From positions 1,128,128 to 1,192,127 of the forward strand of contig CAWFJD010000017.1 of assembly GCA_963816135.1 (NCBI GenBank): a stretch of 64,000 nucleotides of DNA, given 5' to 3'. The stretch comes from an uncultured Chloroflexia bacterium. GTDB taxonomy: Bacteria > Chloroflexota > Limnocylindria > Limnocylindrales > CSP1-4. A model generated the notes under the pieces. It ran no database searches and had not been told where the DNA came from. It saw nothing but the letters and a program-made list of their open reading frames with translations. The translations under genes and the position numbers were made by a program. Below, one piece after another: positions 4,178 to 32,077 of this stretch. The first letter of the stretch is position 1. The number at the start of each line of letters is the position of its first letter.

Positions 4178-4451
4178 TCGTTTGCCTTGGATTATTAGGC
4201 AACACGTGCAACTGGCCTAATGAACCGCGGCTCCTGCCTGGTGCCAGGCGCTGTGGGAGCGCTGTCATGGTTAGCACCACGCTCCCAGAGCGTATAACTG
4301 TAGCCGATTCCGAGCATTTCACGCTCAGCGCACAGCGTCTAATTACACGCTGTCCGCTCTAAGGCGTCGAGGCCGAGGACGAAGGTGGGTGTGTGGAATG
4401 GTGGGTTGGCACCACCCCAGGTGACGCGGAAGGACACACGCCGCGCTGCCG

Positions 4452-5473: not shown

Positions 5474-5486
5474 CGAACGACCTCCA

Positions 5487-6305
5487 TCAATGCCACCCTG
5501 CCAGCACGTACACGGCGGTGAATAGGACGGTGTTGTGGGCGATGTGGAAGACAATGCCGGGCAGGGTCGAACCCGTCCGCTCGCGAACCCAACCAAGCCC
5601 GAGACCGAGGCCGAAGCCCAGCGGCATAAGGATCGGCAGGATGTGGATGCCGCCAAACAGGGCCGCCGTAGTGAGGATCGTCGGCCAGGCGCCATATCGG
5701 CTCCTGAACCAGCCGAAGAGGGCGCCGCGGAACAGGAGCTCCTCCCCAATCGGGGCAAGAAGGCAGGCGCGGGCTAGGCTCAAGCTGGTCGTAAATGGAT
5801 CGAGTGAGCCCAAGCGGCCGCCGTCGGAGCCGAGCCAGGCGAGCGCGTCAACGAGGACTCCAAACGCGCCAATCGCCGTGTAGACGAGCGCGACGGCTCC
5901 CCAACAGAGCACGCCAGTCGCGACCGCGAGGGCCACATCATTGACCGAGGCGAATCGGATTTGGAGGATGTCCCGAAAGCCACCACTGCGGCCCAGGAAC
6001 AGGTACAGCGATGCAATCAGGAGCGCGTAGACCTCGAACACGCTGATTGCAGTGATCGCCTTAGTGAGTCCTGCGGAAGCCGGCGCGACCGCGCTCGCGG
6101 CAGCGAAGGTTGCAGCGCCGACGACCGCAGAAGTTCCGACCCAGACGACCAGCGCGCCGGCCAGGCGAGCGCCTGGCACGGCACCAATCGACGTTGACGA
6201 CATCACACGCGAGCCTCCGCCTGGCAATCCGACCGCGCCGGGGCTCTCGGACTTGTTACCGAGCACCGCCGCGTCGTTCGTCTGAGTTGTTCTCATGGCG
6301 CCCAC
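5487..6305 (-). CDS. CPBP-family intramembrane metalloprotease (CAAX protease / Abi family)
   Basis: Multi-TM protein with the conserved EELLFRG motif and a FHIAHN-type second motif (IVFHIAHNTVLF). Confidence 0.7.
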   Translation of the reverse strand: MGAMRTTQTNDAAVLGNKSESPGAVGLPGGGSRVMSSTSIGAVPGARLAGALVVWVGTSAVVGAATFAAASAVAPASAGLTKAITAISVFEVYALLIASLYLFLGRSGGFRDILQIRFASVNDVALAVATGVLCWGAVALVYTAIGAFGVLVDALAWLGSDGGRLGSLDPFTTSLSLARACLLAPIGEELLFRGALFGWFRSRYGAWPTILTTAALFGGIHILPILMPLGFGLGLGLGWVRERTGSTLPGIVFHIAHNTVLFTAVYVLAGWH

Positions 6306-6380
6306 AGCCGCCCTCTACCGGCCCGCCGGCGGATTGGGCAAGCTCCTTCGCTGGCCGAGGCCGCTCGATTCCGGGCATCC

Positions 6381-7262
6381 CTACAACTCAGCCACTACGG
6401 GGATGACTTCGCGGCCCATGATCTCGAGCGGCGTGATCCGGTCGACGTTCACTACCCAGCCAAAGACGGTTTGGATCCCCATCCCGCTGAGCCAGCGCAG
6501 ACGCCCAATCAGTTCGCCGACCTTCTCGCCGTCTTCGCCAACATCGAAGCCGAAGGGGGCCGTCTTCTCGATAGCGTGGTAGTCGCGCCGTTCCACCTCG
6601 CAGAGTCGACGGAGCAGCTCGAGCTGGCGCGGGATCTCCGGCGATGGGCGCAGGTTGCAGGCGTCGGCGTAACGCGCCACTAGAGGCAATGTCCGACGTT
6701 CACCCGATCCCGCGATGAGGATCGGCGGATGCGGCCGGCTCAAGCTTTGAGGCGCGTTGAGCGGGTGCGGCATTCGGACATGCTCGCCGAGAAACGGACT
6801 CTCGTCTCCACGCTCACCGTCCCACATCCGAAGGCAGGCCTGCACGGTCTCATCGAGCAAGTCGAAGCGTGTACCGAGCTCCGGGAATGGCAATCCGAGC
6901 CCCTCCGCCTCCTCGGCGTAGTCACCGGCGCCGATCCCGAGCATCGCCCGACCGCCAGACAACACGTCCAGCGTCGTTACCATCTTGGCGAGCAGGCCGG
7001 CGGGTCGATAGGGGACTGCCGTGGCCAGTGCCAGGAGCCGAACACGGTTCGTCCGAGCGGCGATGAAGCCGAGAGTCGTGTATGCCTCGATCTGGCTTTC
7101 GGTCGGCCCGCCCATCAGCGGGTGCTGCCAGACATGGTCGGCCACGTCGATGGCATCGAAGCCCGCTGCCTCGGCCGCCTCGACGATAGCTGCAAGAGTG
7201 GAACCAAGCCTCGAAGGGCCGCCCTCCCACGACGTGGCGGGGATGTGCAGACCGAGTCTCAT
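6381..7262 (-). CDS. LLM-class F420-dependent oxidoreductase
   Basis: 293 aa, luciferase-like TIM-barrel family throughout (MRLGLHIPATSWEGG...GFDAIDVADH...). Its start overlaps the stop of the downstream membrane ORF by ATGA. Confidence 0.8.
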   Translation of the reverse strand: MRLGLHIPATSWEGGPSRLGSTLAAIVEAAEAAGFDAIDVADHVWQHPLMGGPTESQIEAYTTLGFIAARTNRVRLLALATAVPYRPAGLLAKMVTTLDVLSGGRAMLGIGAGDYAEEAEGLGLPFPELGTRFDLLDETVQACLRMWDGERGDESPFLGEHVRMPHPLNAPQSLSRPHPPILIAGSGERRTLPLVARYADACNLRPSPEIPRQLELLRRLCEVERRDYHAIEKTAPFGFDVGEDGEKVGELIGRLRWLSGMGIQTVFGWVVNVDRITPLEIMGREVIPVVAEL

Positions 7263-7862
7263 GATGCCTTCGCCTCCGCGCCGGCGGTCGCGCCTTCACG
7301 CGAGCGACCTGACAGGATTCGACCGGCGACGAAGCCCGTCGCTGCCGCAAAGCCGAGCACGACCAGCGACGGCACGAAGTCCGGCTTGAGCGTCATAAGC
7401 CAAACGATCCCCAACGCGATTCCGACCCGCATGGCATAGAACACAGCGAGCGACCTGTCTCGAACGATGTGCAGGGTCTGCTCATTCAGAAGTCCCTGCG
7501 CCTGGCCTAGTGCTTTGCCGGCCACGGCCATTCGGCTCAGGTTGATCGCCGCGCCGAGGATCGCGATGACAACGAAACCGACGAAGGCTCGCGCCGATCC
7601 ACCCACCCGGACTATCGACATTCGCGGCAAGGTAGATGCCTGGGAGCAGGATCAAGCCCAGCGACGCCGGCCCGAGCATCCGCGTCGGCCGCATCAGGCC
7701 AAGCCAGGCCGCCCTTCGGCGCCGGAGGTCGCGCGACGAATGCCCCAAACGGCGACGCCCTCAATTGCCAACGCAGCGAACATCGCGAGCGCCCCAGTGA
7801 TGTGAAGGAATAGCGCGAGGTTGTAGGCCGAGGCAGCGTCCATGTTCTTGCCCTGAGCGGAT
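7259..7862 (-). CDS. Small integral membrane protein (about 4 TM) interrupted by two apparent 1-nt frameshifts
   Basis: Three consecutive minus-strand frames each give plausible TM segments. They read MDAASAYNLALFLHITGALAMFAALAIEGVAVWGIRRA, then LGPASLGLILLPGIYLAANV, then VGFVVIAILGAAINLSRMAVAG...LGIVWLMTLKPDFVPSLVVLGFAAATGFVAG. No single frame is open across all three. Confidence 0.35.
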
Positions 7863-7966
7863 CTAGGTCGGTCAGGCTATTACACTACTTGGAGCACTGC
7901 AATAGTCGTATCACTCCTATGGTGGCACCAGTTGAAAGACCTGGCTCGTTCCGCTAGACTGCGCCA

Positions 7967-8416
7967 GTGGCCGATCCTTCCAAGCAGAGAACCGAGCTTG
8001 CCGCCGCGATATGGCGACGGATCTTCGACTTCATCGTTGCCACCTCACCCCAGCGCATCGACCTACTCGCCAGCAAAGGACTCACCCCCAATGACAGCCG
8101 GGCGCTCCAGAGCCTGAGCGAGGACCCGGCCGGGCGTCCGATGAGATCGCTGGCCTCAGAGTGGCAGTGCGACGCTTCGACGGCGACCTTTATCGTCGAT
8201 CGGCTGGAGGCCAAGGGCCTGGCCGAGCGGCGACCGCACCCGACGGACCGGCGGGTGAAGCTCGCTGCTCTAACCGAACGCGGAGCCGAGACTCAAGCCG
8301 CCCTCGTCGCCGGCACGTACACCCCACCCCCGGAGCTGCTCGAGTTATCTGACGAAGCTCTCGTGACGCTCTTGCGAGGCGTCGAGCTGCTGCCCAATCT
8401 CGGGGGGACGAGATAA
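7967..8416 (+). CDS. MarR-family transcriptional regulator
   Basis: 149 aa with a winged-helix core (LTPNDSRALQSL...SLASEWQCDASTATFIVDRLEAKGLAERRPHPTDRRVKLAALTERG) typical of MarR. Confidence 0.85.
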   Translation: MADPSKQRTELAAAIWRRIFDFIVATSPQRIDLLASKGLTPNDSRALQSLSEDPAGRPMRSLASEWQCDASTATFIVDRLEAKGLAERRPHPTDRRVKLAALTERGAETQAALVAGTYTPPPELLELSDEALVTLLRGVELLPNLGGTR

Positions 8417-8519
8417 TCCGTAGCCGTCTCCGGATGCTCCAGCTCTGACGCAGGTGTCGATGGCCGCTCTCGTGGCGACAGGAGTGGGCGTATTTTTCGA
8501 CGCGCTGTATGCCTGCTTG

Positions 8520-18275: not shown

Positions 18276-20543
18276 CTAGGCCGCCGGCCGACGATCCAAG
18301 GCCACAGCGAGCGGCTGCGGACGGCCGAAGAGGTAGCCCTGACCGAAACCGACGCCTAACGTGGCGAGCATGTCCGCCTCCGCTTCTGTCTCAACGCCCT
18401 CGGCCAGGACCGCGCAACCGACGTTGGATGCGAATCCCACGATGCTTCCGACCAGGGCCCGCTTGGCGGGATCGTCGTCCACGCCGCGGACCAGCACGAT
18501 GTCGAGCTTGAGGATGTCGGGCTCGATTTCGAGAATGTGCCGGAGGCCGGCGTAGCCGGCGCCCACGTCGTCCACCGCGATCCTGGCGCAGCCGCGGAGT
18601 CCGCTCAGCGACGTGCGGAGTTCGACGTAACTCTCGACCGCATCCCGCTCCGTGATCTCGATCACGACCGGGCATCGCGCCTGTTCCAGCAGGCCTCCGA
18701 TGCCGCCGCCGGTGACCAGTTCGGGCGACGCGTTCAGGCTGAGGTAGGTGCCCGCCGGCAAGCCGGCCGCGGACCCAAGAGCGGCATCGATCGTCACGCG
18801 TTCAAGCGCGACACCCAGCCCGGCTCGCGCCGCCTGGGCGAAGCGCACGTCGGGCGGAACGCCGTCGTCGAACCGGGTAAGCGCTTCGTGCCCGACGATC
18901 CGCCGCGTCGCGAGGTCGATGATCGGCTGGAACACGATCCGAAACGCACGAGCTTCAATGATCTGCGCCAGCTCCTGACGTACGGTTCGCTCGCGCGCCC
19001 GCGCCTCCAGCTTCGCTCCGAGGATGGCACCGGCGAGCAGGCCGAACTGGCGCGCGGTCTCGACCCGCTCCTCACGGACGTCGCTCCGGCCGTCGACCGA
19101 AGCGAGGCTGATCCTGCCGAGCAGGCGCTCGCCGAACAGGACCGGACCGCTGCAGGCCATGTGGAGGCCGCCTCCTCGAAGCGCCCCGGCCCACGGATCC
19201 GAGCGGTCCTCGAGCGACTCGTACCAGGCGCCAACCATGGCTCGTGTGCGAAAGTCGGCGGCGACTTCGGCGGGCTGGGTTTCCCCGATGACGGCGCCGG
19301 GCACCGGGCCCACCTGGGCAAGCAGCGTGCTGCTGCCGTCCTCTTCGAACGCGAGAATGGCCGCCTGGGCAACCCCCTCGGCCTCGACCGCGAGCTCGCA
19401 GATCCGGCGTGCCATATCCTCCACCGTTCCGCTCGCGTCGAACCGGACGAGCGAGGTCAGCACCAGCGAGCGGTGACGGATCTCGCGGGCGAGCTCGCCG
19501 GCGGCTGCGATCGACTCGGCGTGGGCGGCGCGCTCGCGGATCACGAGCAGCCACTGACGTACGAGCGCGAGCACGACGACGGTCACCGCTGTGACCTCCA
19601 CGAGGGGCTCGGCGGGCGTGGAGTGGGCAAGCACGATGGCCACGACCGATCCGCCGACGGCGAGGAGCGGATAGACGTCGACCATCGTCCGCCCGTAGCG
19701 ATCCAGGGCGGCCGTCGGTTGGGGTCGACGGTTCCACGTTACGCAGCCCCAGGCCACGCTCAGGATGGCCACGGAGAACCCCCAATCCAGGGGCGTGACT
19801 GGCGCGGTCCGTCCGCCGACGAGCATGTCGAGCCAGAGCAGCCACATCGCGCCGAGAAGGAGGAGGCCGTCAAGCACGGCGTAGGGGCCCCACACGGACG
19901 GCGTCAGTCCGCCGGCGAACAGGACGAGGTAGCCGGCGGCTGAGCACGCGACGAACGCCAGCGCCACCGCCGCGGCGGCGGGTATCGCGGGATCGGGATG
20001 GGGCATGAGAATGAGCGGCTGCCAGGCCGGAGCGAGCACGCAGGCTATGGCTCCGGTCACGATCAGGTAATCGAGGACGAGTTGTCCGAGCGTCGCGCGA
20101 TCGAGGTAGGCCGCGAACGCCCGGAGGAGGACGACCGCCGCGATCGCGAGCGCGATAAGCAGCAGGATCGCCGCCGGACCACCCGCCATCGCCTCCGAGT
20201 CGGGCGCGATTCCCCACGCGGCCATCCCGACGCTCCCCACGCCGAAGGCGAGAGCCAGGCCGCCCGGCAGCCAGCGCCGCCCGGCTCGTGCGGCGCGCCA
20301 CATCACAAGCATCGCGATCAAGGCCGCGACCGTCGTCGCGACTTGCTGGAACACGTCGAGGGGAACGGCCCAGGATCGTGGGCCCAGAGCGGCTCCGACT
20401 GCGGTAATAGAGATAGCCACGAGGGCAGCAAGGAGGGATCGACTTGCCAGACGGAGCGCCCTCGGGGAGAGGGACGGCTCCGCGCTTGGGATCCCGATGG
20501 AGCCGTCCTGGCGCATCACCGGCCGTCTCGCGTCGCGAAGCAC
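18276..20543 (-). CDS. Membrane-anchored EAL-domain protein (putative c-di-GMP phosphodiesterase) with a central sensor-like domain
   Basis: 755 aa. The N-terminal ~300 aa are polytopic. The C-terminal EAL domain has the motifs QPIIDL...GHEALTRF, ...EITERD..., ...DDVGAGYAGLRHILEIEPDILKLD... and GVETEAEADMLATLG. Confidence 0.8.
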   Translation of the reverse strand: MLRDARRPVMRQDGSIGIPSAEPSLSPRALRLASRSLLAALVAISITAVGAALGPRSWAVPLDVFQQVATTVAALIAMLVMWRAARAGRRWLPGGLALAFGVGSVGMAAWGIAPDSEAMAGGPAAILLLIALAIAAVVLLRAFAAYLDRATLGQLVLDYLIVTGAIACVLAPAWQPLILMPHPDPAIPAAAAVALAFVACSAAGYLVLFAGGLTPSVWGPYAVLDGLLLLGAMWLLWLDMLVGGRTAPVTPLDWGFSVAILSVAWGCVTWNRRPQPTAALDRYGRTMVDVYPLLAVGGSVVAIVLAHSTPAEPLVEVTAVTVVVLALVRQWLLVIRERAAHAESIAAAGELAREIRHRSLVLTSLVRFDASGTVEDMARRICELAVEAEGVAQAAILAFEEDGSSTLLAQVGPVPGAVIGETQPAEVAADFRTRAMVGAWYESLEDRSDPWAGALRGGGLHMACSGPVLFGERLLGRISLASVDGRSDVREERVETARQFGLLAGAILGAKLEARARERTVRQELAQIIEARAFRIVFQPIIDLATRRIVGHEALTRFDDGVPPDVRFAQAARAGLGVALERVTIDAALGSAAGLPAGTYLSLNASPELVTGGGIGGLLEQARCPVVIEITERDAVESYVELRTSLSGLRGCARIAVDDVGAGYAGLRHILEIEPDILKLDIVLVRGVDDDPAKRALVGSIVGFASNVGCAVLAEGVETEAEADMLATLGVGFGQGYLFGRPQPLAVALDRRPAA

Positions 20544-21010: not shown

Positions 21011-23572
21011 ATGACGGCTGTCAGAAGCCGTGTTGTCAGGACGATCGGCTGCGGGATCGCGAGCCTGCTGATGGTGGCCGCGCTGCCTTTGGCGGCCTTC
21101 GCCGTGACGCCTGTCGTAACCCAATACGCGATGTCGCCTTCGCCCATCGCCGCGCCCGCTTCCCTTGCCGCGGGCGCAAACGTTTCGATCACCGTGTCGG
21201 CCGAAACGGCCACCAATAGTCTGGTTCCCGGCGCGGTCATCTTCCTGTCGTTCACCCAGGCGACTGGAGGCGGAACGGCCTCCGTCGGCACGACGAGCCT
21301 CGGCAAGACGCCCGTTGCCTTCACCGCGGCATCGGGCACGGTGACGGTCACGTACACCGCCCCGGCCGTGTTGCCGGCTAACGGCCGTGACACGCTCAAG
21401 GCCGCCGACGCCAAGTCGCTGCCCACGATTTCGACCACGGACACCTACGACTTCGCCGCGCCGCTCAGCTACGTGTGGTCGCCGGATCCGATCGCCGCGC
21501 CCGGTTCCGTGGCTGCGGGTAGCACGGTTTCACTCACCGTGACCGCGGAGAACGCGACGGCCGCCCCGGTCCCGAACGCGACGGTCTATCTGTCCTTCGT
21601 CCCGGCGACAGGCGGCGGTTCGGCGACGGTGGGTACCACTGCCCTGACCGCCACGCCGACGGCCTTCGTGGTTGGGGCTACGGGCCAGCTCGCGGTCACC
21701 TACCAGGCGCCTGTGGCGTTGCCGGCAAGCGGCACCGACACGATCGCGGCCCAGCAGACGCCCACGAGCGCCAAGCGGACCGACAGCTACTCCTTCGGAA
21801 CGCTGGGCTCGATCACGTTCTCTCCCAGCCCAATCGCAGCCGCGGGTTCGCTGACGCCCGGGCAAACCGTGGCGGTCACACTCGAGGCCAAGGATGTCGG
21901 CGGTAATCCCGTTGCCGGCCAGGCGCTCTTCCTCACCTTCGTGCCGGGGGCCAATGGCGGCACGGCGATGTTCGGGACTCGGGCGCTCTCGGCGACGCCG
22001 ATTCAAATCAAGACAGACAGCGCCGGCCAGGTGGTGATTCAGTACGCGGCCCCGACCATGGCGGGTGCGACCGGCACCGATACCCTCACGGCCGGCGACG
22101 CCAAGACCAGCCCGACCTTGTCGGCAACCGACAACTACAGCGCCTCGGCGGGTAGCGGCGGGCCCGGTCCGCTCAACCACCTGGTCCTGAGCCCGGCACA
22201 CGCGACCGTGAACCCAGGAGTGGCCCAGGCTTACACCGCTGCCGGTTTCGACGCCAACGGCGTCGCTCTCGGCGACGTGACCTCGGCTACCACCTTCACG
22301 ATCGCCGGCGGCACGTGCACGGCCAACTCCTGCACGGCCACGGCGGCCGGAGATCATACGGTCACTGGCACGGATGGCTCCGCGACCGGCACCGCGACAC
22401 TTACAGTCAGCGGCGTTCTCGGGGCGGTTTCCGGCGATACCTACCATCCAGTTACCCCCGTCCGTCTCCTGGACACCCGGGCCGGCAACGGCCACTCGGG
22501 GCAGCTCGTGGCCAACACTCCCATCACGTTCCAGATCACGGGCCGCGGCATCCCGGCCGGAGCCACCGCGGTCACCGGCAACCTCGCCGTGACGGGTTCG
22601 AGCGCGTCCTGGGCCGTCTACCTGGGCCCAGATCCGGTCGCCTCACCTTCCAGCTCGACGATCAACTTCGAGAAGGGTCAGACCACGGCAAACGGACTGA
22701 CCGTCGCGTTGAGTTCCACAGGCTCCCTATCGGCGACATACATATCCACCGCGGGCAACACGACCGACCTCGTGTTCGACGTGACGGGTTACTTCACGAC
22801 CGATACGACGGGAGCCACCTACCACCCGATGGACCCGGCTCGCCTTCTCGATACCCGAGCGGGCAACGGTCTCTCGACCCGGCTGAGCGCCAACACGCCG
22901 GTGACCTTCCAGATCACCGGCCGCGGCGGGGTGCCGGCTGGCGCCACGGCGATTACCGCCAACGTCACCATTGTCGATGAGACGGCCGCCTGGGCGGTCT
23001 ACGTTGGCCCGATCCCGACCGCCAGCCCGACCACTTCGACCATCAACTTCAATGCCGGCGACGTCAAGGACAACAACTTGACCGTGGAACTGGGAAGTGG
23101 CGGCACCTTGTCTGCCACCTATCTGTCGAACGCGGGCAACACCACGGATCTGGTTCTCGATGTGACCGGCTACTACACCGCGGACCTCACCGGTTCGGAG
23201 TTCGTGCCGATCACCCCGACCAGGCTCCTGGACACTCGCTCCGGCAACGGCTTGTCCGGCATGTTTAGCGCCAACACCCCGCGATCCTTCCAGGTGGGCG
23301 GTCGCGGCGGCATACCGGCAAGCGCCACGGGCGTGACCGGGAACGTCGCCGTGGTCAACGAGACGGCCTCCTGGGCCGTCTTCGTGGGGCCCGATCCGAT
23401 GGCCAGCCCAACAACTTCAACGCTCAACTTCATCGCGGGCCAGGTGGTCGCGAACGGGATGACCGTGGCTCTCGGGTCCGGCGGAACCCTCAGCCCAACC
23501 TACATCTCCACGGCGGGCAACACCGCCGATCTGGTCTTCGACGCCACGGGCTACTTCGTGGCAGCGGGCTAA
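21011..23572 (+). CDS. Secreted protein: signal peptide, 3 Ig-like (Big-type) repeats, a Big_2-like domain, and a C-terminal triple ~126-aa repeat module
   Basis: 853 aa. The signal peptide is MTAVRSRVVRTIGCGIASLLMVAALPLAAFA. There are three ~115-aa units of the form SP.PIAA.GS...G..V..TV.A.......PV.....FLSF....GG..A.VGTT.L..TP......G...V.Y.AP......G.DT, then a Big_2-like segment. The protein ends in three repeats that each begin YHP.TP.RLLDTR.GNG and end DLVFDVTGYF. Confidence 0.75.
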   Translation: MTAVRSRVVRTIGCGIASLLMVAALPLAAFAVTPVVTQYAMSPSPIAAPASLAAGANVSITVSAETATNSLVPGAVIFLSFTQATGGGTASVGTTSLGKTPVAFTAASGTVTVTYTAPAVLPANGRDTLKAADAKSLPTISTTDTYDFAAPLSYVWSPDPIAAPGSVAAGSTVSLTVTAENATAAPVPNATVYLSFVPATGGGSATVGTTALTATPTAFVVGATGQLAVTYQAPVALPASGTDTIAAQQTPTSAKRTDSYSFGTLGSITFSPSPIAAAGSLTPGQTVAVTLEAKDVGGNPVAGQALFLTFVPGANGGTAMFGTRALSATPIQIKTDSAGQVVIQYAAPTMAGATGTDTLTAGDAKTSPTLSATDNYSASAGSGGPGPLNHLVLSPAHATVNPGVAQAYTAAGFDANGVALGDVTSATTFTIAGGTCTANSCTATAAGDHTVTGTDGSATGTATLTVSGVLGAVSGDTYHPVTPVRLLDTRAGNGHSGQLVANTPITFQITGRGIPAGATAVTGNLAVTGSSASWAVYLGPDPVASPSSSTINFEKGQTTANGLTVALSSTGSLSATYISTAGNTTDLVFDVTGYFTTDTTGATYHPMDPARLLDTRAGNGLSTRLSANTPVTFQITGRGGVPAGATAITANVTIVDETAAWAVYVGPIPTASPTTSTINFNAGDVKDNNLTVELGSGGTLSATYLSNAGNTTDLVLDVTGYYTADLTGSEFVPITPTRLLDTRSGNGLSGMFSANTPRSFQVGGRGGIPASATGVTGNVAVVNETASWAVFVGPDPMASPTTSTLNFIAGQVVANGMTVALGSGGTLSPTYISTAGNTADLVFDATGYFVAAG
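22439..23569 (+). repeat. C-terminal tandem triplet of an uncharacterised ~126-aa domain (copies 1-3 of 9 in the window)
   Basis: The per-repeat consensus is [YF].P..P.R.LDTR.G.G........P.TF...G..G.P..A.AVTGN.TV......W.V..GP.......STINF..G....N.LTV.L...G.LSATY.S..G...DLV.DVTGY[FY]. It was read directly from the translation. Confidence 0.7.
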
Positions 23573-23668
23573 CCGCCACAACGCCTTGGAGTGACTAATG
23601 ACGGCGCCGGTCCAGGCGATGAGCGGGACCGGCGCTGTCATTACCTGGTATACCGGCCGGAGCCTGGC

Positions 23669-24196
23669 CTAGCCTCCGGCGGCGGCGGTGTCGCTGCGAT
23701 AGGCAGTCGGCACGGCGGCTGGATCGGTGTCCTCTCCGAGGGCCTCGACCGCCTCGCGGATCTGTCGGTCTTCGGTCTCGCAAAGATCGACGAAACGGAA
23801 GGCGACCAGATGCTGCGTAAGCCGCGGCGACGAGCTCAGCTCGTCCACCCGGACCACCTGGGCGCGGCAGTCCAGCGCTTCGTGGGGAGTCAGTTGCACT
23901 TCGACCCGGAACACCCCGCCGACTTCGAGCGGCGCGGAGGTCAGGCACACGAAGCCGCCCCGGCTGATGTTCGTCGTCCGCACGGCGAGCAACGGCCTGT
24001 CCGCGGACAGATGCAAGTACGCAGGGATGGCGAGCGTAAAGCGTGCGGCCGTACGCCGGTCGGCGTCGTTCTGGTTCGTGGCTGAGCCCTCTCGAGATCT
24101 CTCGGCCGATCGTCTGAGCGCGACTAGCTTAGGCCACGGCGCGGTGACGCGGGAGGGCTGGCGGTACCGGTAACATCCGACCCTTTGGTCCCCCAA
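23669..24196 (-). CDS. PilZ-domain protein (putative c-di-GMP receptor)
   Basis: RRTAAR (RxxxR) followed about 30 residues later by NISRGG (a D/N-x-S-x-x-G motif) and a beta-barrel-like C-terminus. The start codon is uncertain. Confidence 0.55.
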   Translation of the reverse strand: MGDQRVGCYRYRQPSRVTAPWPKLVALRRSAERSREGSATNQNDADRRTAARFTLAIPAYLHLSADRPLLAVRTTNISRGGFVCLTSAPLEVGGVFRVEVQLTPHEALDCRAQVVRVDELSSSPRLTQHLVAFRFVDLCETEDRQIREAVEALGEDTDPAAVPTAYRSDTAAAGG

Positions 24197-24202
24197 TTCG
24201 GA

Positions 24203-25852
24203 CTAGAAGGCCCGGTTCGCGACCAATCGAGCGCCCCAATCCGCCGCCACGGCCGGGAACTCGTTACGGACCTGCGGCCAGCCATGGGTGTAGGCCGAGT
24301 CGATCGCCTTGTACCTGTAGCCGTCGGCCTTGAGCAGCTGCTCGAAGTTGGCGGCCTCCGGGCCGTAGAACGGCTGGCTCGGGTCGGCGACGACGACCAG
24401 ATAAAGGGAGACTCGAACCTGCGGGGCGAGCGTCGAGATCAGGCGCGCCGGCGAGTAGGCGGCAAGAGCAGCCGGCGTAACGAAAGGTCGGGCGGAGTTG
24501 GAATTCGCCGATCCGGCCTCGTAGTAGCCGGAGAACGAGATGGATGTCCCGAAGACGTCAGGGTGTCGAAGAGCGAGCATCGCGGCGCAGAAGCCACCCG
24601 CCGACATGCCCATGATGCCGCGTCCGGCGGGCCGGGCAATCGTCCGGTAATGGGAATCGACATACTCGGGGACGGTCTTAGATATGAACGTTTCCATCTT
24701 CATCTGCCCGTTCGTGGAATTCGCGCACTCGGAATCCGGGAAGGGCGCGCCCCACTCGTCGATGAAGACGACGATCGAGGCCGGCATGGCTCCCGAATCG
24801 ATGAGCGAGTCGAGCGCCGCGGTGGCTCCGGTGCCTTTGTCCCACAACGTGAAGCCGGTGGGTGCCTCATAGAGGACCGGATACGAACGGCTGCCCGCCG
24901 GGTCGTAGCCGGGCGGCGTGTACACCGAGAAATCGGCCACGGTGCGAGTGCCGCCGGTCCAGGGCGCGGGAACGTCGTAGTTGACGACCCGGCCGGCTCC
25001 GGAAGGCCGCCAGGCCAGCCAAGGCCTGCTGCCGCCCGCGGAGCTCCCGGGGGCTGTCGCGCTCCCCGGAGTCGACGTCGAACCGGTGGTCGGACCCGCG
25101 CTCGGGTCAGTTGTGGAACCCACGGTCGGGCCGGTAGTCGCGGTGGCTCCCCCACCTCCGTCGCTGGGCCTGCTCGCCGCTGAAGACGGTGCGCCACCCG
25201 ATAGCGGAATCCGCTCCACGCCGCCGAGCATCAGCGCGTCCGGCGAGAGGTTGACCATGTCTCCGAACGCCGGGACGGTCACGACGAGAAGGATGAGGAC
25301 CAGCACGGCCACGATGGGCCGGCGCAGGCTGGCGACCCGGTCGCGGCCCCCGCCGAGGAGTAGGCCCAGATCCGAGCCCGTCGCGATGAGGGCCGGCCGA
25401 AGGGCCACGGCCAGTGTCGCTCCGGCCGCCGCGGCGAGGGTCCCGATCACGGCCAGCGTGGCCAGCGTAACGATCCAGCCGCCCGGCGAGAAAGATCCCA
25501 GCGCGCCCGTGGCAGCCAGCGCGTTCTGCGTTTCCGCCACGAACGTCTGGAGGTACAGGGCCGCGACGCCCGCGATCCCCAGCAGCGTGGCAAATCGGGT
25601 CCGCGGTGCCGCAAGGGCCGCCATGGCCGCGACGACGGCGCCCACGACGAGAGCCGTGATCAGCTGGGCGCGGTCCGGATCGAAGCCCATGACGACGAGC
25701 GCCACGTCCGACGACTCGACGGTACCGGAAACCACCGCTCCGACGACGACGACGGCCGCGAGCAGGATGCCTGCCAGCGTCGACGGCGAAAAGGTGGACG
25801 AGCGCGCGTCTCGACGGCGATCGGGGTTGGGCCGCCAGCTCGCCTGGCTCAC
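24203..25852 (-). CDS. Membrane-anchored esterase (esterase-D / Ag85-like alpha/beta hydrolase) with a Pro/Gly/Thr-rich linker
   Basis: The C-terminal ~300 aa read YPVLYEAPTGF...GIMGMSAGGFCAAMLALRHPDVFGTSISFSG... (GxSxG nucleophile), a putative-esterase family fold. The N-terminus has about five TM helices. The inferred GTG start at 25852 overlaps the stop (25849) of the upstream DUF2156 gene (GTGA). Confidence 0.7.
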   Translation of the reverse strand: MSQASWRPNPDRRRDARSSTFSPSTLAGILLAAVVVVGAVVSGTVESSDVALVVMGFDPDRAQLITALVVGAVVAAMAALAAPRTRFATLLGIAGVAALYLQTFVAETQNALAATGALGSFSPGGWIVTLATLAVIGTLAAAAGATLAVALRPALIATGSDLGLLLGGGRDRVASLRRPIVAVLVLILLVVTVPAFGDMVNLSPDALMLGGVERIPLSGGAPSSAASRPSDGGGGATATTGPTVGSTTDPSAGPTTGSTSTPGSATAPGSSAGGSRPWLAWRPSGAGRVVNYDVPAPWTGGTRTVADFSVYTPPGYDPAGSRSYPVLYEAPTGFTLWDKGTGATAALDSLIDSGAMPASIVVFIDEWGAPFPDSECANSTNGQMKMETFISKTVPEYVDSHYRTIARPAGRGIMGMSAGGFCAAMLALRHPDVFGTSISFSGYYEAGSANSNSARPFVTPAALAAYSPARLISTLAPQVRVSLYLVVVADPSQPFYGPEAANFEQLLKADGYRYKAIDSAYTHGWPQVRNEFPAVAADWGARLVANRAF

Positions 25853-27642
25853 GTCGCGGCCGCCTGTCTGACGGTCTGCCGTCTCCAGGGCAGGTGTATG
25901 GCATCCGCGACATGCACCCAGAGAAGTCCGGAGACGAACGCGATCAGGTCCCGGCGATAGCGAACAGCTCCATACCTGGGCACCCAGACCGGGTCGAACT
26001 TGCCCTTGAAGAAGGCCAGCCCCTTCACGTCGTACCAGCGCTGGACGAGGCGGCCGCCCGTCGCCAGCAGCCGCTCCTCGAGTGGCCCGTTCGGATCCAG
26101 GCCGGCCAGGGGTGCCAGACCGAGCGAAAGAGAGGACGCGCCCGCGTTTCGGAAACCCGTGGCCGCCTCCGCGATGCATGCCTCGACGACGCCCGGTGGG
26201 CTGCCCGTCATGCGCCTCATGAGATCGAGCACCCAGCTGCCGTCGGCGCCGGTGCGCCGGAAGGTGGCAAAGCCGATCGCCCGGTCATCGGGACCGATCG
26301 CGACCGAGATCGGCTGCCAGCCGATTGAACCCCGCTCGTACCTGCCGATCGTGAACCCCATCTGCGGCCCCGCGCGCTTGCGCCAGTCCGCATCGACTGC
26401 ATCGAGCTGGTCGGCGAGGCGACTCTCCTCGGCCGGAACGCCGGCGGGGAACCAGCGAAAGCGCACGCCATCGCGCTTGCATCGGGTGATCGTGTGGCGC
26501 AGATTCGCCCTGCGGGACCCGCTGGTATCGAACGTCCGCAGGTCGATGACCGCCTCCTCGCCAACCTTGAAGGTGCGAAATCCCAGGGCCGCCAGGCGAC
26601 TTCGGCCGCTGGGACTGGCCTGGTAAACAACCGGGATTCGATCCTGCCTGCGGCTGCGGGCCACGAAATCGGCGAGGAGGCGGATGGCTTCCTCGTCCGG
26701 CCCGATCGGATCTCCGAGGACGACGGCCGTGCGGCCGGCCATTCCATAGACCACAAGGCCATTCGAATCGGGTGGGTCGAAGACGTACTTGTCCTCACCA
26801 AGCTGGAACGGCAGCAGCGCTCCGGAGCCGTAGCGCTCCGCGATGGCTCGGGCCCGCGATCTGGTGGTTGGGTCCGGCGGCGGTTCGGCCACCCGGCTCA
26901 GGACCCCGATCGCCGCAAGCACCATGGGCAACCGCGCCAGCACGATCAGCAGACCCAGCAGGGCATCGCGGCTGGTGGCCTGCAGCACTCGCTGGCCCGC
27001 GTCGTCGCTCAAGCCGAACGCGTTGGCAATCGCCCAGGTGAAGTCGCCTGCGCTCGCGAGAGGCCGCGGCCAGTCGTTGGTGGCGATGATGATCACAGAG
27101 GTTTCTATGGCCAGGGTGATCAGGCTCACGATGAAGAGCCAGATGATGAGGCGTTTCCAGCCAACACCGGTCTGGACCTCATAGCGGCGACGATCGGCGA
27201 GCAGCACCGAGAACGCGATGAACGCGGCGACTACGACGACGGGGTGAGCCAGGAGGTCCGACTGGGCAAGCAGCGCAACGCACAGGGTCACGAGGGTCAA
27301 AACCCAAGCGATCGTCTTGCTTCGAATGAGCCCGACGGTCAGGGCGCCGAGGCCGGCCGCCGAGAGGAGCGCCAGCGCCGGGCTGGCATCGTTGGGGTCG
27401 AATGGCAGGATGCCGTCGAGCGCGTCGGTTGCGGCCTGGAACAGGCCGAACGCGTAGGCCAGGGATGCCAGCGCGCAGACAGCCAGGAAGAGGGCCGGCG
27501 CATAGGTGTAGGCCGTCGCCGCTATTCGGACTGGCAGGCCTCGCCTCCGATGGACAGGCTTCGCCATGCCGTCCCAGCTCCGATTGGTAGGAGCCGCTCG
27601 TCCCCTGACGGGTAGCTTCATCTTCAGAACCAACCACCTCAT
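25849..27642 (-). CDS. Aminoacyl-phosphatidylglycerol synthase-like protein: polytopic N-terminus plus DUF2156 (MprF/LysX C-terminal synthase domain)
   Basis: 597 aa. The N-terminal half has about 6 TM helices. The C-terminal half (LLPFQLGEDKYVFDP...GLVVYGMAGRTAVVLGDPIG...DLMRRMTGSPPGVVEACIAEA...) matches the GNAT-like aa-PG synthase domain of MprF-family enzymes. Confidence 0.7.
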   Translation of the reverse strand: MRWLVLKMKLPVRGRAAPTNRSWDGMAKPVHRRRGLPVRIAATAYTYAPALFLAVCALASLAYAFGLFQAATDALDGILPFDPNDASPALALLSAAGLGALTVGLIRSKTIAWVLTLVTLCVALLAQSDLLAHPVVVVAAFIAFSVLLADRRRYEVQTGVGWKRLIIWLFIVSLITLAIETSVIIIATNDWPRPLASAGDFTWAIANAFGLSDDAGQRVLQATSRDALLGLLIVLARLPMVLAAIGVLSRVAEPPPDPTTRSRARAIAERYGSGALLPFQLGEDKYVFDPPDSNGLVVYGMAGRTAVVLGDPIGPDEEAIRLLADFVARSRRQDRIPVVYQASPSGRSRLAALGFRTFKVGEEAVIDLRTFDTSGSRRANLRHTITRCKRDGVRFRWFPAGVPAEESRLADQLDAVDADWRKRAGPQMGFTIGRYERGSIGWQPISVAIGPDDRAIGFATFRRTGADGSWVLDLMRRMTGSPPGVVEACIAEAATGFRNAGASSLSLGLAPLAGLDPNGPLEERLLATGGRLVQRWYDVKGLAFFKGKFDPVWVPRYGAVRYRRDLIAFVSGLLWVHVADAIHLPWRRQTVRQAAAT

Positions 27643-28001
27643 CCGCTTCGCGGAAACCGATCGCGAGGTCGCGGTGTCGACGCATACGATCGGATTTCGG
27701 TTTCGTCGCGAAGGAGTCGCACCAGCGGCGTCTCACCACCCGCGACCCCAGGTCAATGGCTCCAGGCTAAGGGCGCAATTCAGATTGGCCGTGTTTGGGT
27801 CGAGGCGCGGCTGCACGGCCGAGTGTCCCAGGAGGGAGGTCGCCCCGTTGCGTCGGTCCGCGGGCCGGTTCCACTGCCAGACTAAGCCGAGGCTGTCGGC
27901 TCCGAGCGTGCAGCGGCGACGCCGCGGCTCGTGTACCGTCCGAATCGCACGAGGCCGGCGCACGAAGCGCCAGCCACGAGCCACGACGAACGAGGGATCG
28001 G

Positions 28002-28574
28002 ATGGCGGCGGACGTCGTCGAGCTTGCGGATCCGGGCTGGTCGCGCCACGACTTCTACATGCGCCTCGCCATCGTGGTCGAGTCCGGAGCCAAGTGCCTG
28101 GGATCGCGCGTGGGGGCGGTGATCGTCCGCGACAACCGAGTCCTCGGCAGCGGTTACAACGGCACTCCGGCCGGCTATCCGAACTGCACTGAGACGGAAC
28201 GCGGCTGCCGCCGCTGCGCCCTGCGCCTTGAATCGCCCGACACACAGATCGCCGGCAAGCTCTACGACATCTGCCTGTGCGTCCACGCGGAGCAGAACGC
28301 GATGCTCACGGCCGCCCGCTTCGGCACCGCAATCGATGGCGCCGTGCTCTACACGACGGTCCAGCCGTGTTTCAACTGCCTCAAGGAGATCATGCAGACG
28401 CGCATCCGAGGCGTGGTCTTCCGCCGCGAATGGGAAGCGCGCCACCCGGACTACGCCTGGGTAGCCTCCGAATACGACCGCCTGGTCGAGCACTATCGCG
28501 CCGCCGGCAACCTCTTCGCCCGACTCGCCCAGGCCGAAACTCTGACCGCGGTGCAGCTCGAAATCGGCCGTTAG
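28002..28574 (+). CDS. dCMP / cytidine deaminase-family zinc enzyme (ComEB-like)
   Basis: The zinc-binding motifs HAEQNAM and PCFNCLKEIMQ are present. The start was assigned at ATG 28002 (MAADVVEL...); the upstream part of the listed ORF is not protein-like. Confidence 0.8.
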   Translation: MAADVVELADPGWSRHDFYMRLAIVVESGAKCLGSRVGAVIVRDNRVLGSGYNGTPAGYPNCTETERGCRRCALRLESPDTQIAGKLYDICLCVHAEQNAMLTAARFGTAIDGAVLYTTVQPCFNCLKEIMQTRIRGVVFRREWEARHPDYAWVASEYDRLVEHYRAAGNLFARLAQAETLTAVQLEIGR

Positions 28575-28614
28575 GCACGGGAGACGGCGGCGCGCTGACA
28601 CGCCCGGCCCGAGC

Positions 28615-29673
28615 CTACGAGATGGCGATCATCCGCTCCAGGGCCTGTCGGGCGCGGCCGGCGACATCTTCCGGCACGGAGATCTCGAACTGGTCCAGCG
28701 CCAGCGAGTCGCGCAGCTTCTCGAGCGTGGTCAGCTTCATGTACTGGCAGATCGCCTCGCGGTTCACCGGCACGAAACGCTTGCCCGGTGCCTTGAGCGC
28801 GAGCCGGTGGAGGATGCCGATTTCGGTCGCGATGAGGAATGCCGGCGCGGCCGAACGCTCCGCGTAGGTGACCATGCCCTCGGTCGAGAGGACGTGGACG
28901 TCTTCACCCGCGGCGGCAGCGGCATCGATGACCTGGCTCGTGCAGCCGCACTCCGGGTGGATCAGAAGCTCGGCGCCGGGCTCCGCGCGATGCCACTCCT
29001 CCACGTCCGCCGGCCGGATGCCCGCGTGGACGTGGCACTCGCCAAGCCAGAGGATCAGCTTGCGGCCGGTTACTCGCCGGAGCCACATTCCCAGGAACAG
29101 GTCCGGCAGGAAGAGGATTTCGCGGTCGGCGGGAATGGCCTCGATGACGCCGCGGGCGTTGCCGGAAGTGCAGCAGTAGTCGCTCTCGGCCTTGACGGCG
29201 GCGCTCGTGTTCACGTACGAAACCACGACCGCGCCCGGATGCTCGGCCTTCCAGGCCCGGAGCTGATCCACGCTGATCGAGTCGGCGAGCGAGCAGCCGG
29301 CGGCCAGGTCCGGGAGGAGAACGCGCTTCGAGGGCGAGAGGATCTTGGCGGTTTCGGCCATGAACGCGACGCCGCAGAACACGATCGTGGACTGGCGGGC
29401 GGACGCGGCGACGCGGGAGAGCATCAGGGAGTCGCCCACGTGATCCGCCACGTCCTGGATTTCCGGCCGCTCGTAGGAATGGGCCAGGATGACGGCGTCG
29501 CGCTCGGCCGCAAGGCGGCGAATCTCGGCCTGGAGCTCGGGGAAGGTCGCGGGATCTCCCGCGGGCGGGATGGCCGTCGAGCGGGCGGCCTCCAGGCGCG
29601 CGAGCTGGCCGGCCGAGACGTCGACGGAGGACGAAGCGGTCGATGACGCCGAGGCCGAATGTTGGTCGGTCAC
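28615..29673 (-). CDS. nadA: Quinolinate synthase NadA
   Basis: Full-length match to NadA (AVILAHSYERPEIQDVADHVGDSLMLSR...FMAETAKILSP...SYVNTSAAVKA...CTSGNA...GECHVHAG...HPECGC...). The GTG start at 29673, preceded by GAGGT, overlaps the nadC stop (GTGA). Confidence 0.85.
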   Translation of the reverse strand: MTDQHSASASSTASSSVDVSAGQLARLEAARSTAIPPAGDPATFPELQAEIRRLAAERDAVILAHSYERPEIQDVADHVGDSLMLSRVAASARQSTIVFCGVAFMAETAKILSPSKRVLLPDLAAGCSLADSISVDQLRAWKAEHPGAVVVSYVNTSAAVKAESDYCCTSGNARGVIEAIPADREILFLPDLFLGMWLRRVTGRKLILWLGECHVHAGIRPADVEEWHRAEPGAELLIHPECGCTSQVIDAAAAAGEDVHVLSTEGMVTYAERSAAPAFLIATEIGILHRLALKAPGKRFVPVNREAICQYMKLTTLEKLRDSLALDQFEISVPEDVAGRARQALERMIAIS

Positions 29674-30603
29674 CCGATTACCTCGAGCGAGACGTCGAGC
29701 GCCTTGACCGAATGCGTGAGCGCCCCGAGCGAGACGAAGTCGACGCCGGTCTGGCCGACCGCGCGAAGGTTGTCGAGCGTGATGCCGCCGGAGGCTTCGG
29801 TTTCGACCCGGCCGCCGACGATCTCGACCGCGGCGCGCAGCATCTCGACGCTCATGTTGTCGAGCAGTATCCGGTCGACCCCGGCTTCGAGCGCTTCGCG
29901 GACCTCGTCGAGCGTTTCGGCCTCGACTTCGAGACGCAGCTGTGGCGCGATGTGCGCGAAGGCGGGCGACCGCCGGAGCGATGCCGCCGGCGAGGCGAAG
30001 GTGGTTGTCCTTGACGAGGAGCGCCTCGCCGAGGCTCATCCGGTGGTTCGTGCCGCCGCCGCACCGGACCGCGTACTTCTCGAGCTCGCGCAGACCGGGA
30101 GTGGTCTTGCGAGTGTCGAGCAGCGTGGCGCCCGTCCCTTCGAGTTCGGCGACGCATCGGGCGGTCAGCGTTGCGATGCCGCAGAGGCGGCCGAGGATGT
30201 TCAACGCCGTCCGCTCGCCCGCGAGAACGGCTCGGGCGGGACCTGTGATGCGGGCAATCTCGGCGGGAACATGGTCCACTCGCTCGCCGTCCTGGACCTC
30301 GGCCGTGATCGTGACCGCGGGATCGAGCGCGGCGAACACGGCCCGGACGACCGGCAGGCCGCAGATCACTCCGGGTTCCTTGACCAGAAGAGAGGTGCGG
30401 GCGATGGCCTGGGCCTCGAACAGGCCTTCTGAAGTGGGGTCGCCCGCCGCCAGGTCCTCGGCGAGGGCCAGGGCCACGACCCGCTCCACGGCCTGCGGGT
30501 CGGGCGGGCGGACGAGGCCGGGAGTGACGGCGGCTGCGGCGTCTGCTGCGGCTGCGGCGGCCGCCGCGGCGGCGTTGAAGGAGTCCACGAGTTCGCCAGA
30601 CAT
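29670..30603 (-). CDS. nadC: Nicotinate-nucleotide pyrophosphorylase (quinolinate phosphoribosyltransferase) NadC, with one apparent 1-nt frameshift near 29950-29990
   Basis: The N-terminus (DPTSEGLF...LLVKEPGVICGL...LAGERTALNILGRLCGIATLT...TRKTTPGLRELEKYAVRCGGGTNHRMSLGEALLVKDNHLRLAGGIAPAVARLRAH) is in the frame starting at 30603. The rest (IAPQLRLEVEAETLDEVREALEAGVDRILLDNMSVEMLRAAVEIVGGRVETEASGGITLDNLRAVGQTGVDFVSLGALTHSVKALDVSLEV) is in the frame ending at stop 29670. Confidence 0.8.
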
Positions 30604-32077
30604 CAGGACCAGTGCTCCAGGGAGAGTTGCTTACCCGGCCGGAGGACGAAATGGCCCTCGAAGGCCGGATCGGGGGCGGGGGCGTCGATACGGTAATGGA
30701 CGCCGCGACTCTCGCGTCGGGCCAGGGCGAACGTGGCTACGAGCGCGGCAACGGGGTCCGCGACGCAGGCGAGATCCGCGAGAGCCAGAGGGTCGCGCAT
30801 GACGCCGGCCTCACGCCAAACCTGGTCGCGGAGCTCGTTCGAGACGACGCGCTCGTGGGCGCGGGTGTGGCCGGGGCCGGTGCCGTGGCCGTGGCCGGCC
30901 GTGGCCGTGGCCGGGGCCGCAGACTTCGCCGCCTGGCCCAGCGCCGCCAGGTCGTTCGCCTGCGCGAACCGGGGCCGACTCGTCGAGCGCCGCCAGGGCC
31001 GCGCGCCTGCCGAAGACCAGGCATTCGAGGAGCGAGTTGGAAGCGAGCCGGTTGGCTCCGTGGACGCCGGTCGCGGCGCATTCGCCCGGCGGCGTACAAA
31101 CGCGGAATGTCCGTCCGGCCGTCGAGGTCCGTGACGATGCCGCCGATCGTGTAGTGGGCCGCCGGCGAAACGGGCACCGGAGCGCGGGCGGGGTCGTAGC
31201 CGGAGCGTTCGATCTCCGCCATCAGGCCCGGGAAACGGCCTCGGTCGATTGCCCGCAGATCCAGGAACACCCGGCCCTGGCGAACCATCGCCCGGGCAAC
31301 CTCGTCGCGGGGCGCCAGCTCGTCCACGAAACGCTCGCCCGCCGCGTCGAGGAGCGTGGCGCCCTCGCCTCGGAGGGCCTCGGTCAGGAGCAGCCGCGAG
31401 CCTTCCAGCACCGTCGGATGGAATTGCATGAACTCCATGTCCGCGACGGCCGCGCCGGCACGGACCGCCAGCGCGATCGCGTCCCCGATCTGGCCCATCG
31501 GGTTGGTGGATCGAGCCCAGAGCGCGGCGGCTCCGCCCATCGCGAGGACGGTGGCGCGGGACCGGATCGTTCCGGTGGCGGTCACGACGCCGAGACACTG
31601 CCCGCCTTCCACCCACAGGCCTCGGACGTCGGTCTCCTGCGTGATCGCGATCCGCTCGTCGCGAACCGCCCGTCGCTCGAGCAGGCTCGTGACCGCCCAG
31701 CCCGTGACGGCCCCCTCCACGCTCGAGACGCGCCGGCGCGAGTGGCCGCCTTCGAGGCTGAGCTCGGGATCGAACGGCACGCCGAACGCGATGAGCTCGC
31801 GAACCCGCTCCGGCCCTTCTTCGACGAGGACGTGGACGGCGCTCGGCCGGCACAGGTCCCGCCCCGCCCGCTCCGTGTCGATCTGGTGGAGCGCCGTGGT
31901 GTCGTCGTCGCCCATCGTGGCCGCGATCCCGCCCTGGGCATGCCAGCTCGAGGAGTCGGGGGCGTGGCCCTTGGTCACCATCAGAACGGACGCGCCCTGG
32001 TCCGCGGCGGTCAGCGCGGCGGTGAGTCCGGCCGCGCCGGAACCGACGACGAGGACGTCGGGAATGTTGGAGGTCAC
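30603..32077 (-). CDS. nadB: L-aspartate oxidase NadB, with two apparent 1-nt frameshifts (about 31085 and about 30990)
   Basis: The FAD-binding N-terminus ([22 protein letters not shown]...) is in frame 1 up to ...RLYAAG. The next segment [38 protein letters not shown] is in a second frame. The C-terminus (...[12 protein letters not shown]...[15 protein letters not shown]...[14 protein letters not shown]...) is in a third frame. Both shifts fall in homopolymer runs (ccGGGcg and gCCCCg). The nadB stop overlaps the nadC start (ATGA). Confidence 0.8.

Follow-up and report, generated by a model that had tools for sequence, protein, structure and literature searches.

Why does the gene for a putative aminoacyl-tRNA:lipid transferase run, stop codon into start codon, into the gene for a putative membrane-embedded esterase, and what might the second enzyme do with the product of the first? 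The question is posed by two minus-strand genes, here called A and B, which together fill positions 24203-27642 of a 64,000-nt window (the entire stretch analyzed, part of contig CAWFJD010000017.1 from an uncultured Chloroflexia bacterium of the Limnocylindrales); the base composition of the region is ~68% G+C. A first-pass annotation had proposed a candidate aminoacyl-phosphatidylglycerol (aa-PG) synthase/hydrolase pair. The adjacency of A and B is not a matter of chance, and a functional module of synthase and esterase is well supported. That part of the proposal, the functional link, has been strengthened by conserved adjacency, whereas B as a hydrolase and phosphatidylglycerol (PG) as the lipid are what we infer.

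The functional link is well founded because the pairing is strongly conserved. In one relative (L001), whose esterase is 49% identical to that of gene B, the synthase and esterase genes overlap by 4 nt despite otherwise different neighbors, and an ATGA- or GTGA-type overlap is also present in L002-L004. A metagenome scan with the esterase family yielded 79 loci; a synthase gene is adjacent on the same strand in 38, upstream of the esterase in 27 and downstream in 11. Among the 27 with the synthase upstream, stop and start codons overlap as ATGA or GTGA in a compatible frame at 22. Seven loci lack a synthase even though at least 3.8 kb is available on both sides, and the remainder are too short to judge. 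When the look-up was reversed, using synthase homologues on contigs outside the esterase list, all three of three had an esterase gene downstream; furthermore, the homologue lists of genes A and B have 27 longest-contig values in common. One cluster representative, the 1095-amino-acid P0165, has a synthase (PF09924) joined directly to an esterase (PF00756) with five transmembrane (TM) helices, the junction lying at about residues 560-600. P0165 may have arisen by natural fusion or be a frameshift artifact at the 4-nt overlap; as a fusion, it requires the synthase C-terminus and the esterase N-terminus to share one side of the membrane, in keeping with the cytoplasmic location predicted for both in A and B.

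The esterase family has also undergone local expansions. L120 carries a tandem esterase pair (3806-7455) without a synthase, L165 has three esterase genes around one synthase (1410-8434), and paired and unpaired copies are found together on the single contig that contains L150 and L152. A constant alternative partner for the unpaired paralogues was considered and rejected: their neighbors vary from locus to locus and include LCP-like and DsbD-like genes.

How far the pairing extends was determined by a profile search of 1.84 billion representatives and by a genome scan seeded with a Ktedonobacteria-type alignment (A3), which gave 80 loci that were then subjected to tblastn and open reading frame (ORF) analysis. 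Beyond the close family, the search found proteins of ~500-545 amino acids built on the plan of gene B, in which five TM helices and a G[FL]DxxR motif accompany an esterase domain. The synthase/esterase pair was present at 25 of the 80 genome loci, all of them in Chloroflexota, Dormibacterota, or Actinomycetota, and in two arrangements. Ktedonobacteria, other Chloroflexota, and one Dormibacterota metagenome-assembled genome have a five-TM esterase and a synthase of ~510-610 amino acids, in either order; in Gaiellales, Thermoleophilia, Streptosporangiaceae, and other Actinomycetota, a ~315-amino-acid esterase with a single TM helix is encoded directly upstream of, and overlapping, the gene for a ~690-amino-acid flippase-less synthase. 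By comparison, none of ~48 generic PF00756 loci (Bacteroidota, Proteobacteria, Paenibacillus, and others) had an adjacent synthase. Synthase-paired esterase domains cluster apart from unpaired ones in a neighbor-joining tree calculated without bootstrap, and they have in common an "E-W-A/G" ("EW") signature that is not in the unpaired domains. The data suggest that the synthase/PF00756-esterase module exists beyond Actinobacteria, in Chloroflexota and Dormibacterota as well.

The synthases of the two arrangements are not of one lineage. Those of Chloroflexota and Dormibacterota, gene A included, score higher against the MprF model than against the LysX model, whereas the reverse is true of the actinobacterial paired synthases; the lipid substrate cannot simply be transferred from either group. 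The actinobacterial proteins are also ~110 residues longer than their Chloroflexota counterparts. In L016, L018, L022, L023, and L034, the extension (the first ~140 residues) contains a conserved "LPLDEL" motif, followed in some by "HH"; it falls outside the coverage of the MprF and LysX models and is unrelated to the five-TM domain of the esterases.

The longest ORF for gene A (25849-27642) would encode 597 amino acids. The product on record has 572, and a GGAG is found ~10 nt 5' of an ATG at 27567; for these two reasons we have taken this ATG as the start, which it probably is. Pfam found only LPG_synthase_C (PF09924, formerly DUF2156) in the protein, at residues 267-559 with an E value of 3.2e-61, and the match covers positions 3-297 of the 298-position model. 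The solved catalytic domains 5vrv, 6lv0, 4v36, and 4v34 also match gene A. Overall, the solved MprF/LpiA, L-PGS, and A-PGS structures do so at E values of 1e-30 to 4e-44, the best being 7f47 (Rhizobium MprF, 4e-44). Gene A has the features of an MprF-type transferase, i.e., a C-terminal DUF2156 domain and a membrane domain directly N-terminal to it, and this membrane domain corresponds in alignment to the final TM helices of Rhizobium MprF (chain 7f47, from residue 375 onward). However, the NCBIfam MprF model (NF033480) is matched at positions 306-833 of 841 only, and thus gene A corresponds to the synthase half without the flippase half. The PF03706 flippase domain was detected neither in gene A nor in any of its 120 listed homologues. 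With no flippase half and a score of 242 bits against a cut-off of 600, gene A is not, as judged from these models, an MprF equivalog. Its score against LysX (NF002821) is 114 bits (cut-off 742), and it ends ~40 residues past the DUF2156 domain, lacking the C-terminal lysyl-tRNA synthetase of LysX.

Gene B has 298 full-length homologues, and the named homologues of both proteins are from "Candidatus Limnocylindrales bacterium" (Chloroflexota). Hydropathy and the positive-inside rule predict five TM helices with the N-terminus inside and the C-terminus outside; inside loops are rich in lysine and arginine, outside loops are acidic or neutral, and every loop obeys the rule. The topology of both proteins was deduced from hydropathy and charge. 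The five-TM domain contains 38 positions that are invariant among 14-16 family members, and it was modeled by AlphaFold2 (AF2) with a predicted local distance difference test score (pLDDT) of 83.7 and a predicted template modeling score of 0.73; nevertheless, it has no Pfam match, and Foldseek detected no matching fold in the Protein Data Bank (PDB; best E 0.42). A hidden Markov model of the domain matches only esterases from Chloroflexota and Dormibacterota and nothing in the actinobacterial loci. In its G[FL]DxxR signature, D58 and R61 are invariant even in distant Ktedonobacteria. Other invariant polar residues are D60 and Q63, which with D58 and R61 are at the start of TM2, and E107 and T108 at the end of TM3; a GxFxxxGW loop and F196, D198, and N201 past TM5 are likewise invariant. 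The invariant polar residues are all predicted by this topology to lie at the outer membrane surface.

The domain is followed by a linker of 60 residues (14 Gly, 13 Ser, 11 Thr, nine Ala, and eight Pro), whose length and sequence vary among homologues; residues 192-273 are disordered in the AF2 model (pLDDT <50). Beyond it lies the esterase domain, which is predicted to be extracytoplasmic. The first-pass annotation had anticipated most of this: about six TM helices and DUF2156 in the upstream gene (six were predicted, and PF09924 matched essentially as a full model), a GTGA overlap (found at 25849-25852), and a downstream multi-TM protein with a linker and an esterase-D/Ag85-like domain, for which five TM helices, the 60-residue linker, PF00756, and Foldseek all speak. 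It had also asked whether the esterase domain is outside, which hydropathy and the positive-inside rule predict, and whether gene A would fall inside the DUF2156 family, which it does. What it had observed is confirmed on every point.

Gene B matches PF00756 ("Putative esterase") with an E value of 4.2e-23 (82.8 bits, cut-off 22), and the only other Pfam match at E ≤0.01 is a weak one to peptidase S9 (PF00326). Foldseek comparison of the esterase model found a soil metagenome esterase, CE1 feruloyl esterases, S-formylglutathione hydrolases (esterase D), and Ag85C, with a probability of 1.00 to several PF00756 members; the relatives in structure and sequence include Ag85C and PS1 mycoloyltransferases. 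The active site is altered. In a comparison of 49 esterase domains, three from the gene B subfamily and 46 others, the catalytic-Asp column contains Asp in all 46 others but Ser, Gly, or Pro in the three subfamily sequences, and no conserved acidic residue was present in this stretch across the 16-member family alignment. Similarly, the Gly of the "HG" motif is retained in all 46 others and is an invariant Glu in the subfamily. Gene B therefore departs from both the canonical Ser-Asp/Glu-His triad and the "HG" motif of PF00756. A Ser-His dyad is not without precedent in the family, IroE being an example. A disulfide between Cys376 and Cys422 is likely, a suggestion that comes from their co-variation rather than from distances; the Cys pair and the Ser/Thr/Pro-rich linker would both fit an extracytoplasmic esterase domain. 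Table 1 lists the coordinates of these features.

Table 1. Features of the synthase/esterase locus, with positions given in the 64,000-nt window.
Feature	Coordinates	Strand	Evidence
Gene A, flippase-less MprF-type aminoacyl-tRNA:lipid transferase (predicted), 572 aa	25849..27567	-	PF09924, NCBIfam MprF model, PDB MprF/LpiA matches
Gene A membrane domain, six predicted TM helices, both termini cytoplasmic (predicted)	26908..27525	-	Kyte-Doolittle hydropathy and Lys/Arg distribution
Gene A LPG_synthase_C (DUF2156, tandem GNAT) catalytic domain, predicted cytoplasmic	25966..26844	-	Pfam and solved domains
Gene A stop (TGA)/gene B start (GTG) overlap, GTGA	25849..25852	-	Sequence
Gene B, membrane-embedded PF00756 esterase (predicted), 549 aa	24203..25852	-	Pfam, homologues, AF2 model, Foldseek
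Gene B N-terminal five-TM domain, residues 1-215	25208..25852	-	Hydropathy, alignment, AF2
Gene B GFDPDR motif, residues 56-61, predicted outer end of TM2	25670..25687	-	Alignments A1 and A2, motif scan
Gene B disordered Gly/Ser/Thr/Ala/Pro-rich linker, residues 216-275	25028..25207	-	Composition, AF2
Gene B esterase domain, alpha/beta-hydrolase, PF00756, predicted extracytoplasmic	24206..25027	-	Pfam, AF2 pLDDT ~90, Foldseek
Glu329 codon, candidate substitute for the lost acid	24866..24868	-	Invariant in subfamily; Gly of "HG" in others
Cys376 codon, in place of Trp of the "EW" signature	24725..24727	-	Alignment; co-varies with Cys422
Ser417 codon, nucleophile in G-x-S-x-G-G elbow (predicted)	24602..24604	-	Invariant in A1, A2, and all 49 esterase domains
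Cys422 codon, in place of Gly/Ala five residues past the nucleophile	24587..24589	-	Alignment
His523 codon, catalytic histidine (predicted)	24284..24286	-	Invariant in all alignments
PilZ-domain gene, directly 3' of gene B, possibly co-transcribed	23669..24196	-	Pfam PilZ, E 1e-11

Several known systems resemble the pair. In bifunctional MprF (Staphylococcus aureus, and Rhizobium LpiA/MprF, 7duw and 7f47), the catalytic DUF2156 domain together with the six TM helices next to it is homologous to gene A, which differs in missing the N-terminal flippase half. A DUF2156 synthase is found beside a hydrolase gene in A-PGS/VirJ-type systems (Pseudomonas aeruginosa), LpiA/AcvB (Agrobacterium), RakPGS/AhyD (Enterococcus), and ErdS/ErdH; these hydrolases act on the aminoacyl ester, and the bacterial ones are extracytoplasmic. 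Like the known aa-PG hydrolases, gene B adjoins a synthase and has its catalytic domain predicted to be outside, but it is not homologous to VirJ/AcvB or ErdH (PF07859), and its predicted anchor is polytopic instead of a signal peptide. Pfam at E ≤0.01 places gene B in neither the VirJ nor the AhyD family, no direct sequence comparison with AhyD having been made. It has in common with PF00756 enzymes (esterase D, CE1, Ag85) the fold, the GxSxGG elbow, and the C-terminal His; it lacks their triad Asp and "HG" and has an invariant Glu and a Cys pair instead.

The closest parallel is found in Actinobacteria. A 2015 paper by Smith et al. in Mol Microbiol (98:681) is said to have described a putative esterase that is encoded upstream and conserved in many Actinobacteria. 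Three unrelated types of partner are encoded next to aminoacyl-PG synthases, namely VirJ, AhyD, and the putative esterase PesT (PMC6103681). In Corynebacterium glutamicum, pesT is in an operon with alaDAGS and alanyl-PG (Ala-PG) is made only when both are expressed; whether PesT transfers alanine from alanyl-diacylglycerol (Ala-DAG) to PG or hydrolyzes Ala-DAG is not settled, and the AlaDAGS type of synthase was described as exclusive to Actinobacteria (PMC6103681). Six TM helices are predicted for AlaDAGS and for LysX, each of which also has a GNAT-like domain and makes aminoacyl-diacylglycerol (PMC10580965), a precedent for a lipid other than PG. A fungal DUF2156 enzyme, ErdS, is paired with a dedicated hydrolase, ErdH, of another alpha/beta-hydrolase family (PMC7334510).

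In both AlaDAGS-PesT and the A-B pair, the gene of a six-TM synthase without a flippase half adjoins a putative esterase gene of the same orientation. The actinobacterial pairs found here agree with how the pesT-alaDAGS operon has been described, and their esterases cluster with those of Chloroflexota and carry the same "EW" signature. That PesT is a PF00756 member and an ortholog of gene B is suggested by its published description; when a Streptosporangiaceae esterase served as the seed of a protein search, no Corynebacterium sequence was reached. There are also differences: the order here is reversed, synthase then esterase; the organism belongs to Chloroflexota, not Actinobacteria; and the synthase, scoring higher with MprF, is not of the LysX/AlaDAGS-like lineage. 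Further, relative to the actinobacterial esterases, gene B has five conserved TM helices in place of one, and has lost the canonical Asp and "HG" that they keep. On this reading, the locus is a relative of a known type of module with a PesT-type partner, and not a new kind. The different hydrolase subfamily had led the first-pass annotation to call the pair non-canonical, a view that overlooked PesT; given the PF00756-synthase pairs in many Actinomycetota, such a subfamily is by itself nothing new. What is new here is the phylum, the conserved five-TM domain, and an active site without Asp and "HG" but with a Cys pair.

What, then, would gene B do? The reading that we favor, and place just on the probable side, is that A and B form a two-component lipid-aminoacylation module in which the esterase deacylates the lipid and sets its steady-state level. 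Six membrane helices of gene A would hold a cytoplasmic tandem-GNAT (DUF2156) domain that takes the aminoacyl group of an aminoacyl-tRNA and attaches it to a lipid hydroxyl in the inner leaflet of the membrane; the acceptor might be PG, diacylglycerol (DAG), or a glycolipid. Gene B would be made in fixed proportion to gene A by virtue of the overlapping stop and start codons, and its five-helix domain would serve as the anchor for a serine-esterase domain held outside the cell on the flexible linker. Once the lipid reaches the outer leaflet, this domain would attack the aminoacyl ester, the likeliest outcome being removal of the amino acid and a set steady state of the modified lipid, as with AhyD, VirJ/AcvB, and ErdH. 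Deacylation is our default, since this task has been taken on at least three times by hydrolases unrelated to one another. The invariance of Ser417, His523, and GxSxGG argues for retained catalysis by gene B.

A number of points weigh against this reading. Both enzyme activities, as well as the topology, the lipid, the amino acid, and the choice between hydrolysis and transfer, are predictions from sequence; the placement of the esterase domain outside the cell rests on hydropathy and charge. The loss of the canonical Asp and "HG" means that gene B may not follow standard esterase chemistry. Unpaired gene B paralogues exist, and the esterase family is thus not always tied to a synthase. In the absence of a flippase half, the route by which the product would reach an outward-facing esterase is unexplained. 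Finally, PesT, the nearest counterpart, is required for Ala-PG formation and was not shown to be a hydrolase (PMC6103681).

The PesT finding leads to the alternative that we take most seriously, although we hold it only tentatively: gene B may be a transferase or product switch in which an aminoacyl-enzyme formed on Ser417 passes the amino acid from the primary aminoacyl lipid to a second acceptor outside the membrane, for example an envelope polymer or a different lipid. In that case the identity of the aminoacylated products, and not simply their amount, would depend on the pair. Such a reaction would have its parallel in PF00756 enzymes of the Ag85 type, for which acyl transfer takes the place of hydrolysis, and Ag85C and PS1 mycoloyltransferases are indeed among the relatives of gene B. 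The replacement of "HG" and Asp while Ser and His are kept fits a changed partitioning between water and acceptor, and a lipid donor or acceptor could dock on the conserved polar face that the five-TM domain is predicted to turn outward. In C. glutamicum, Ala-PG was found only when PesT and AlaDAGS were expressed together, and Ala-DAG-to-PG transfer was proposed (PMC6103681). On the other hand, no acceptor is indicated by the neighborhood, as neighbors beyond the pair are not conserved; all characterized synthase-adjacent partners other than PesT are hydrolases; and it is from description alone that we infer PesT to be a PF00756 protein.

We think it unlikely, but worth stating, that the five-TM esterase is no homeostatic hydrolase but the outer half of a tRNA-fed route of amino acid export: the synthase would load an amino acid onto a carrier lipid inside, the five-TM domain would receive or translocate that lipid as a stand-in for the MprF flippase, and the rewired Ser-His(-Glu) esterase would transfer the aminoacyl group to an envelope acceptor. 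If true, these Terrabacteria would use lipid aminoacylation as a carrier system like that of teichoic-acid D-alanylation and not as a means of changing membrane charge.

Less probable still is that gene B is mainly a membrane partner, its five-TM domain replacing the flippase half or stabilizing the synthase while the degenerate esterase domain binds the head group. The flippase half is missing in all listed synthase homologues, the invariant positions of the five-TM domain exceed the needs of a mere anchor, the canonical Asp and "HG" are lost, and P0165 offers a natural synthase-esterase fusion. Nevertheless, the five-TM domain has no sequence or fold likeness to MprF or transporters (no Pfam match, Foldseek E 0.42), and Ser417, His523, and the GxSxGG elbow are invariant; moreover, the single-TM actinobacterial esterases keep the pairing, and hence the association does not depend on a five-TM domain. 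The poorest candidate of all is mere co-location by shared regulation or hitch-hiking, with the esterase acting on an unrelated envelope glycan or lipid ester: the closest solved relatives are carbohydrate esterases and the soil metagenome esterase, and unpaired paralogues do sit beside unrelated LCP-like and DsbD-like genes, but three phyla retain the pairing although order, neighborhood, and esterase architecture have changed, stop and start codons often overlap and the genes are once fused, and at the ~48 loci with generic esterases of the same Pfam family a synthase is never adjacent.

The surroundings of the pair in the window are conserved over a shorter range than the pair itself. The order is nadB-nadC-nadA, a divergent gene of the cytidine/dCMP-deaminase family, and then synthase-esterase-PilZ, and this whole order is repeated in the L002-L004 relative, whose esterase is 48% identical. 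The PilZ gene starts 7 nt past the gene B stop codon; it holds the same position in L002-L004, L085, L087, and L091 and is absent in L001, L164, L165, and L166, and its linkage to the pair is therefore confined to the closest relatives. An EAL-domain protein of 755 amino acids is encoded 3 kb beyond it (18276-20543, minus strand). The PilZ and EAL genes hint at control of the locus linked to cyclic di-GMP in this sub-lineage. No Rfam family, sigma-70-like promoter, or convincing terminator was found in 22500-29000, and there are no paralogues of the pair within the window.

The deaminase-family gene (27795-28574, plus strand) is divergent from gene A, a position kept in L002-L004 and L164. The intergenic region of ~230 nt that separates this gene from gene A is conserved, and neither an RNA family nor a promoter-like site was detected in it. 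Farther upstream, nadB (30606-31939, minus strand) is broken over three frames and nadC (29679-30513, minus strand) over two, relative to the intact genes of L002; a 662-amino-acid ORF at 28615-30603 is a read-through that comprises the N-terminal part of nadC, an out-of-frame stretch, and then nadA. Either the NAD-biosynthesis genes have decayed or the long-read assembly contains indel errors here; no such breaks occur in genes A and B, which are intact. Convergent with the PilZ gene, 21011-23572 (plus strand) encodes an 853-amino-acid protein that has a signal peptide and two sets of three repeats, an N-terminal set with units of ~120 amino acids and a C-terminal set with units of ~125 amino acids ("RLLDTRxGNG ... 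DxTGYF"). It has no Pfam match and looks like a secreted repeat protein.

Lipid aminoacylation of the MprF type shapes membrane charge, resistance to antimicrobial peptides, and tolerance of stress, and the role of the PesT-type esterase in systems without a flippase has been an open question since 2015. The practical impact of the present locus is modest, its organism being uncultured, and specialists will not be surprised by the pairing itself; the architecture and the phyletic spread are nonetheless useful for questions about the function of PesT-type partners. At least two architectures of the esterase exist, one with a single anchor and one with a conserved five-helix domain, and the protein is occasionally fused to its synthase. 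Such natural variants are handles on how the product meets an outward enzyme, on hydrolysis versus transfer, and on the role of the five-TM domain.

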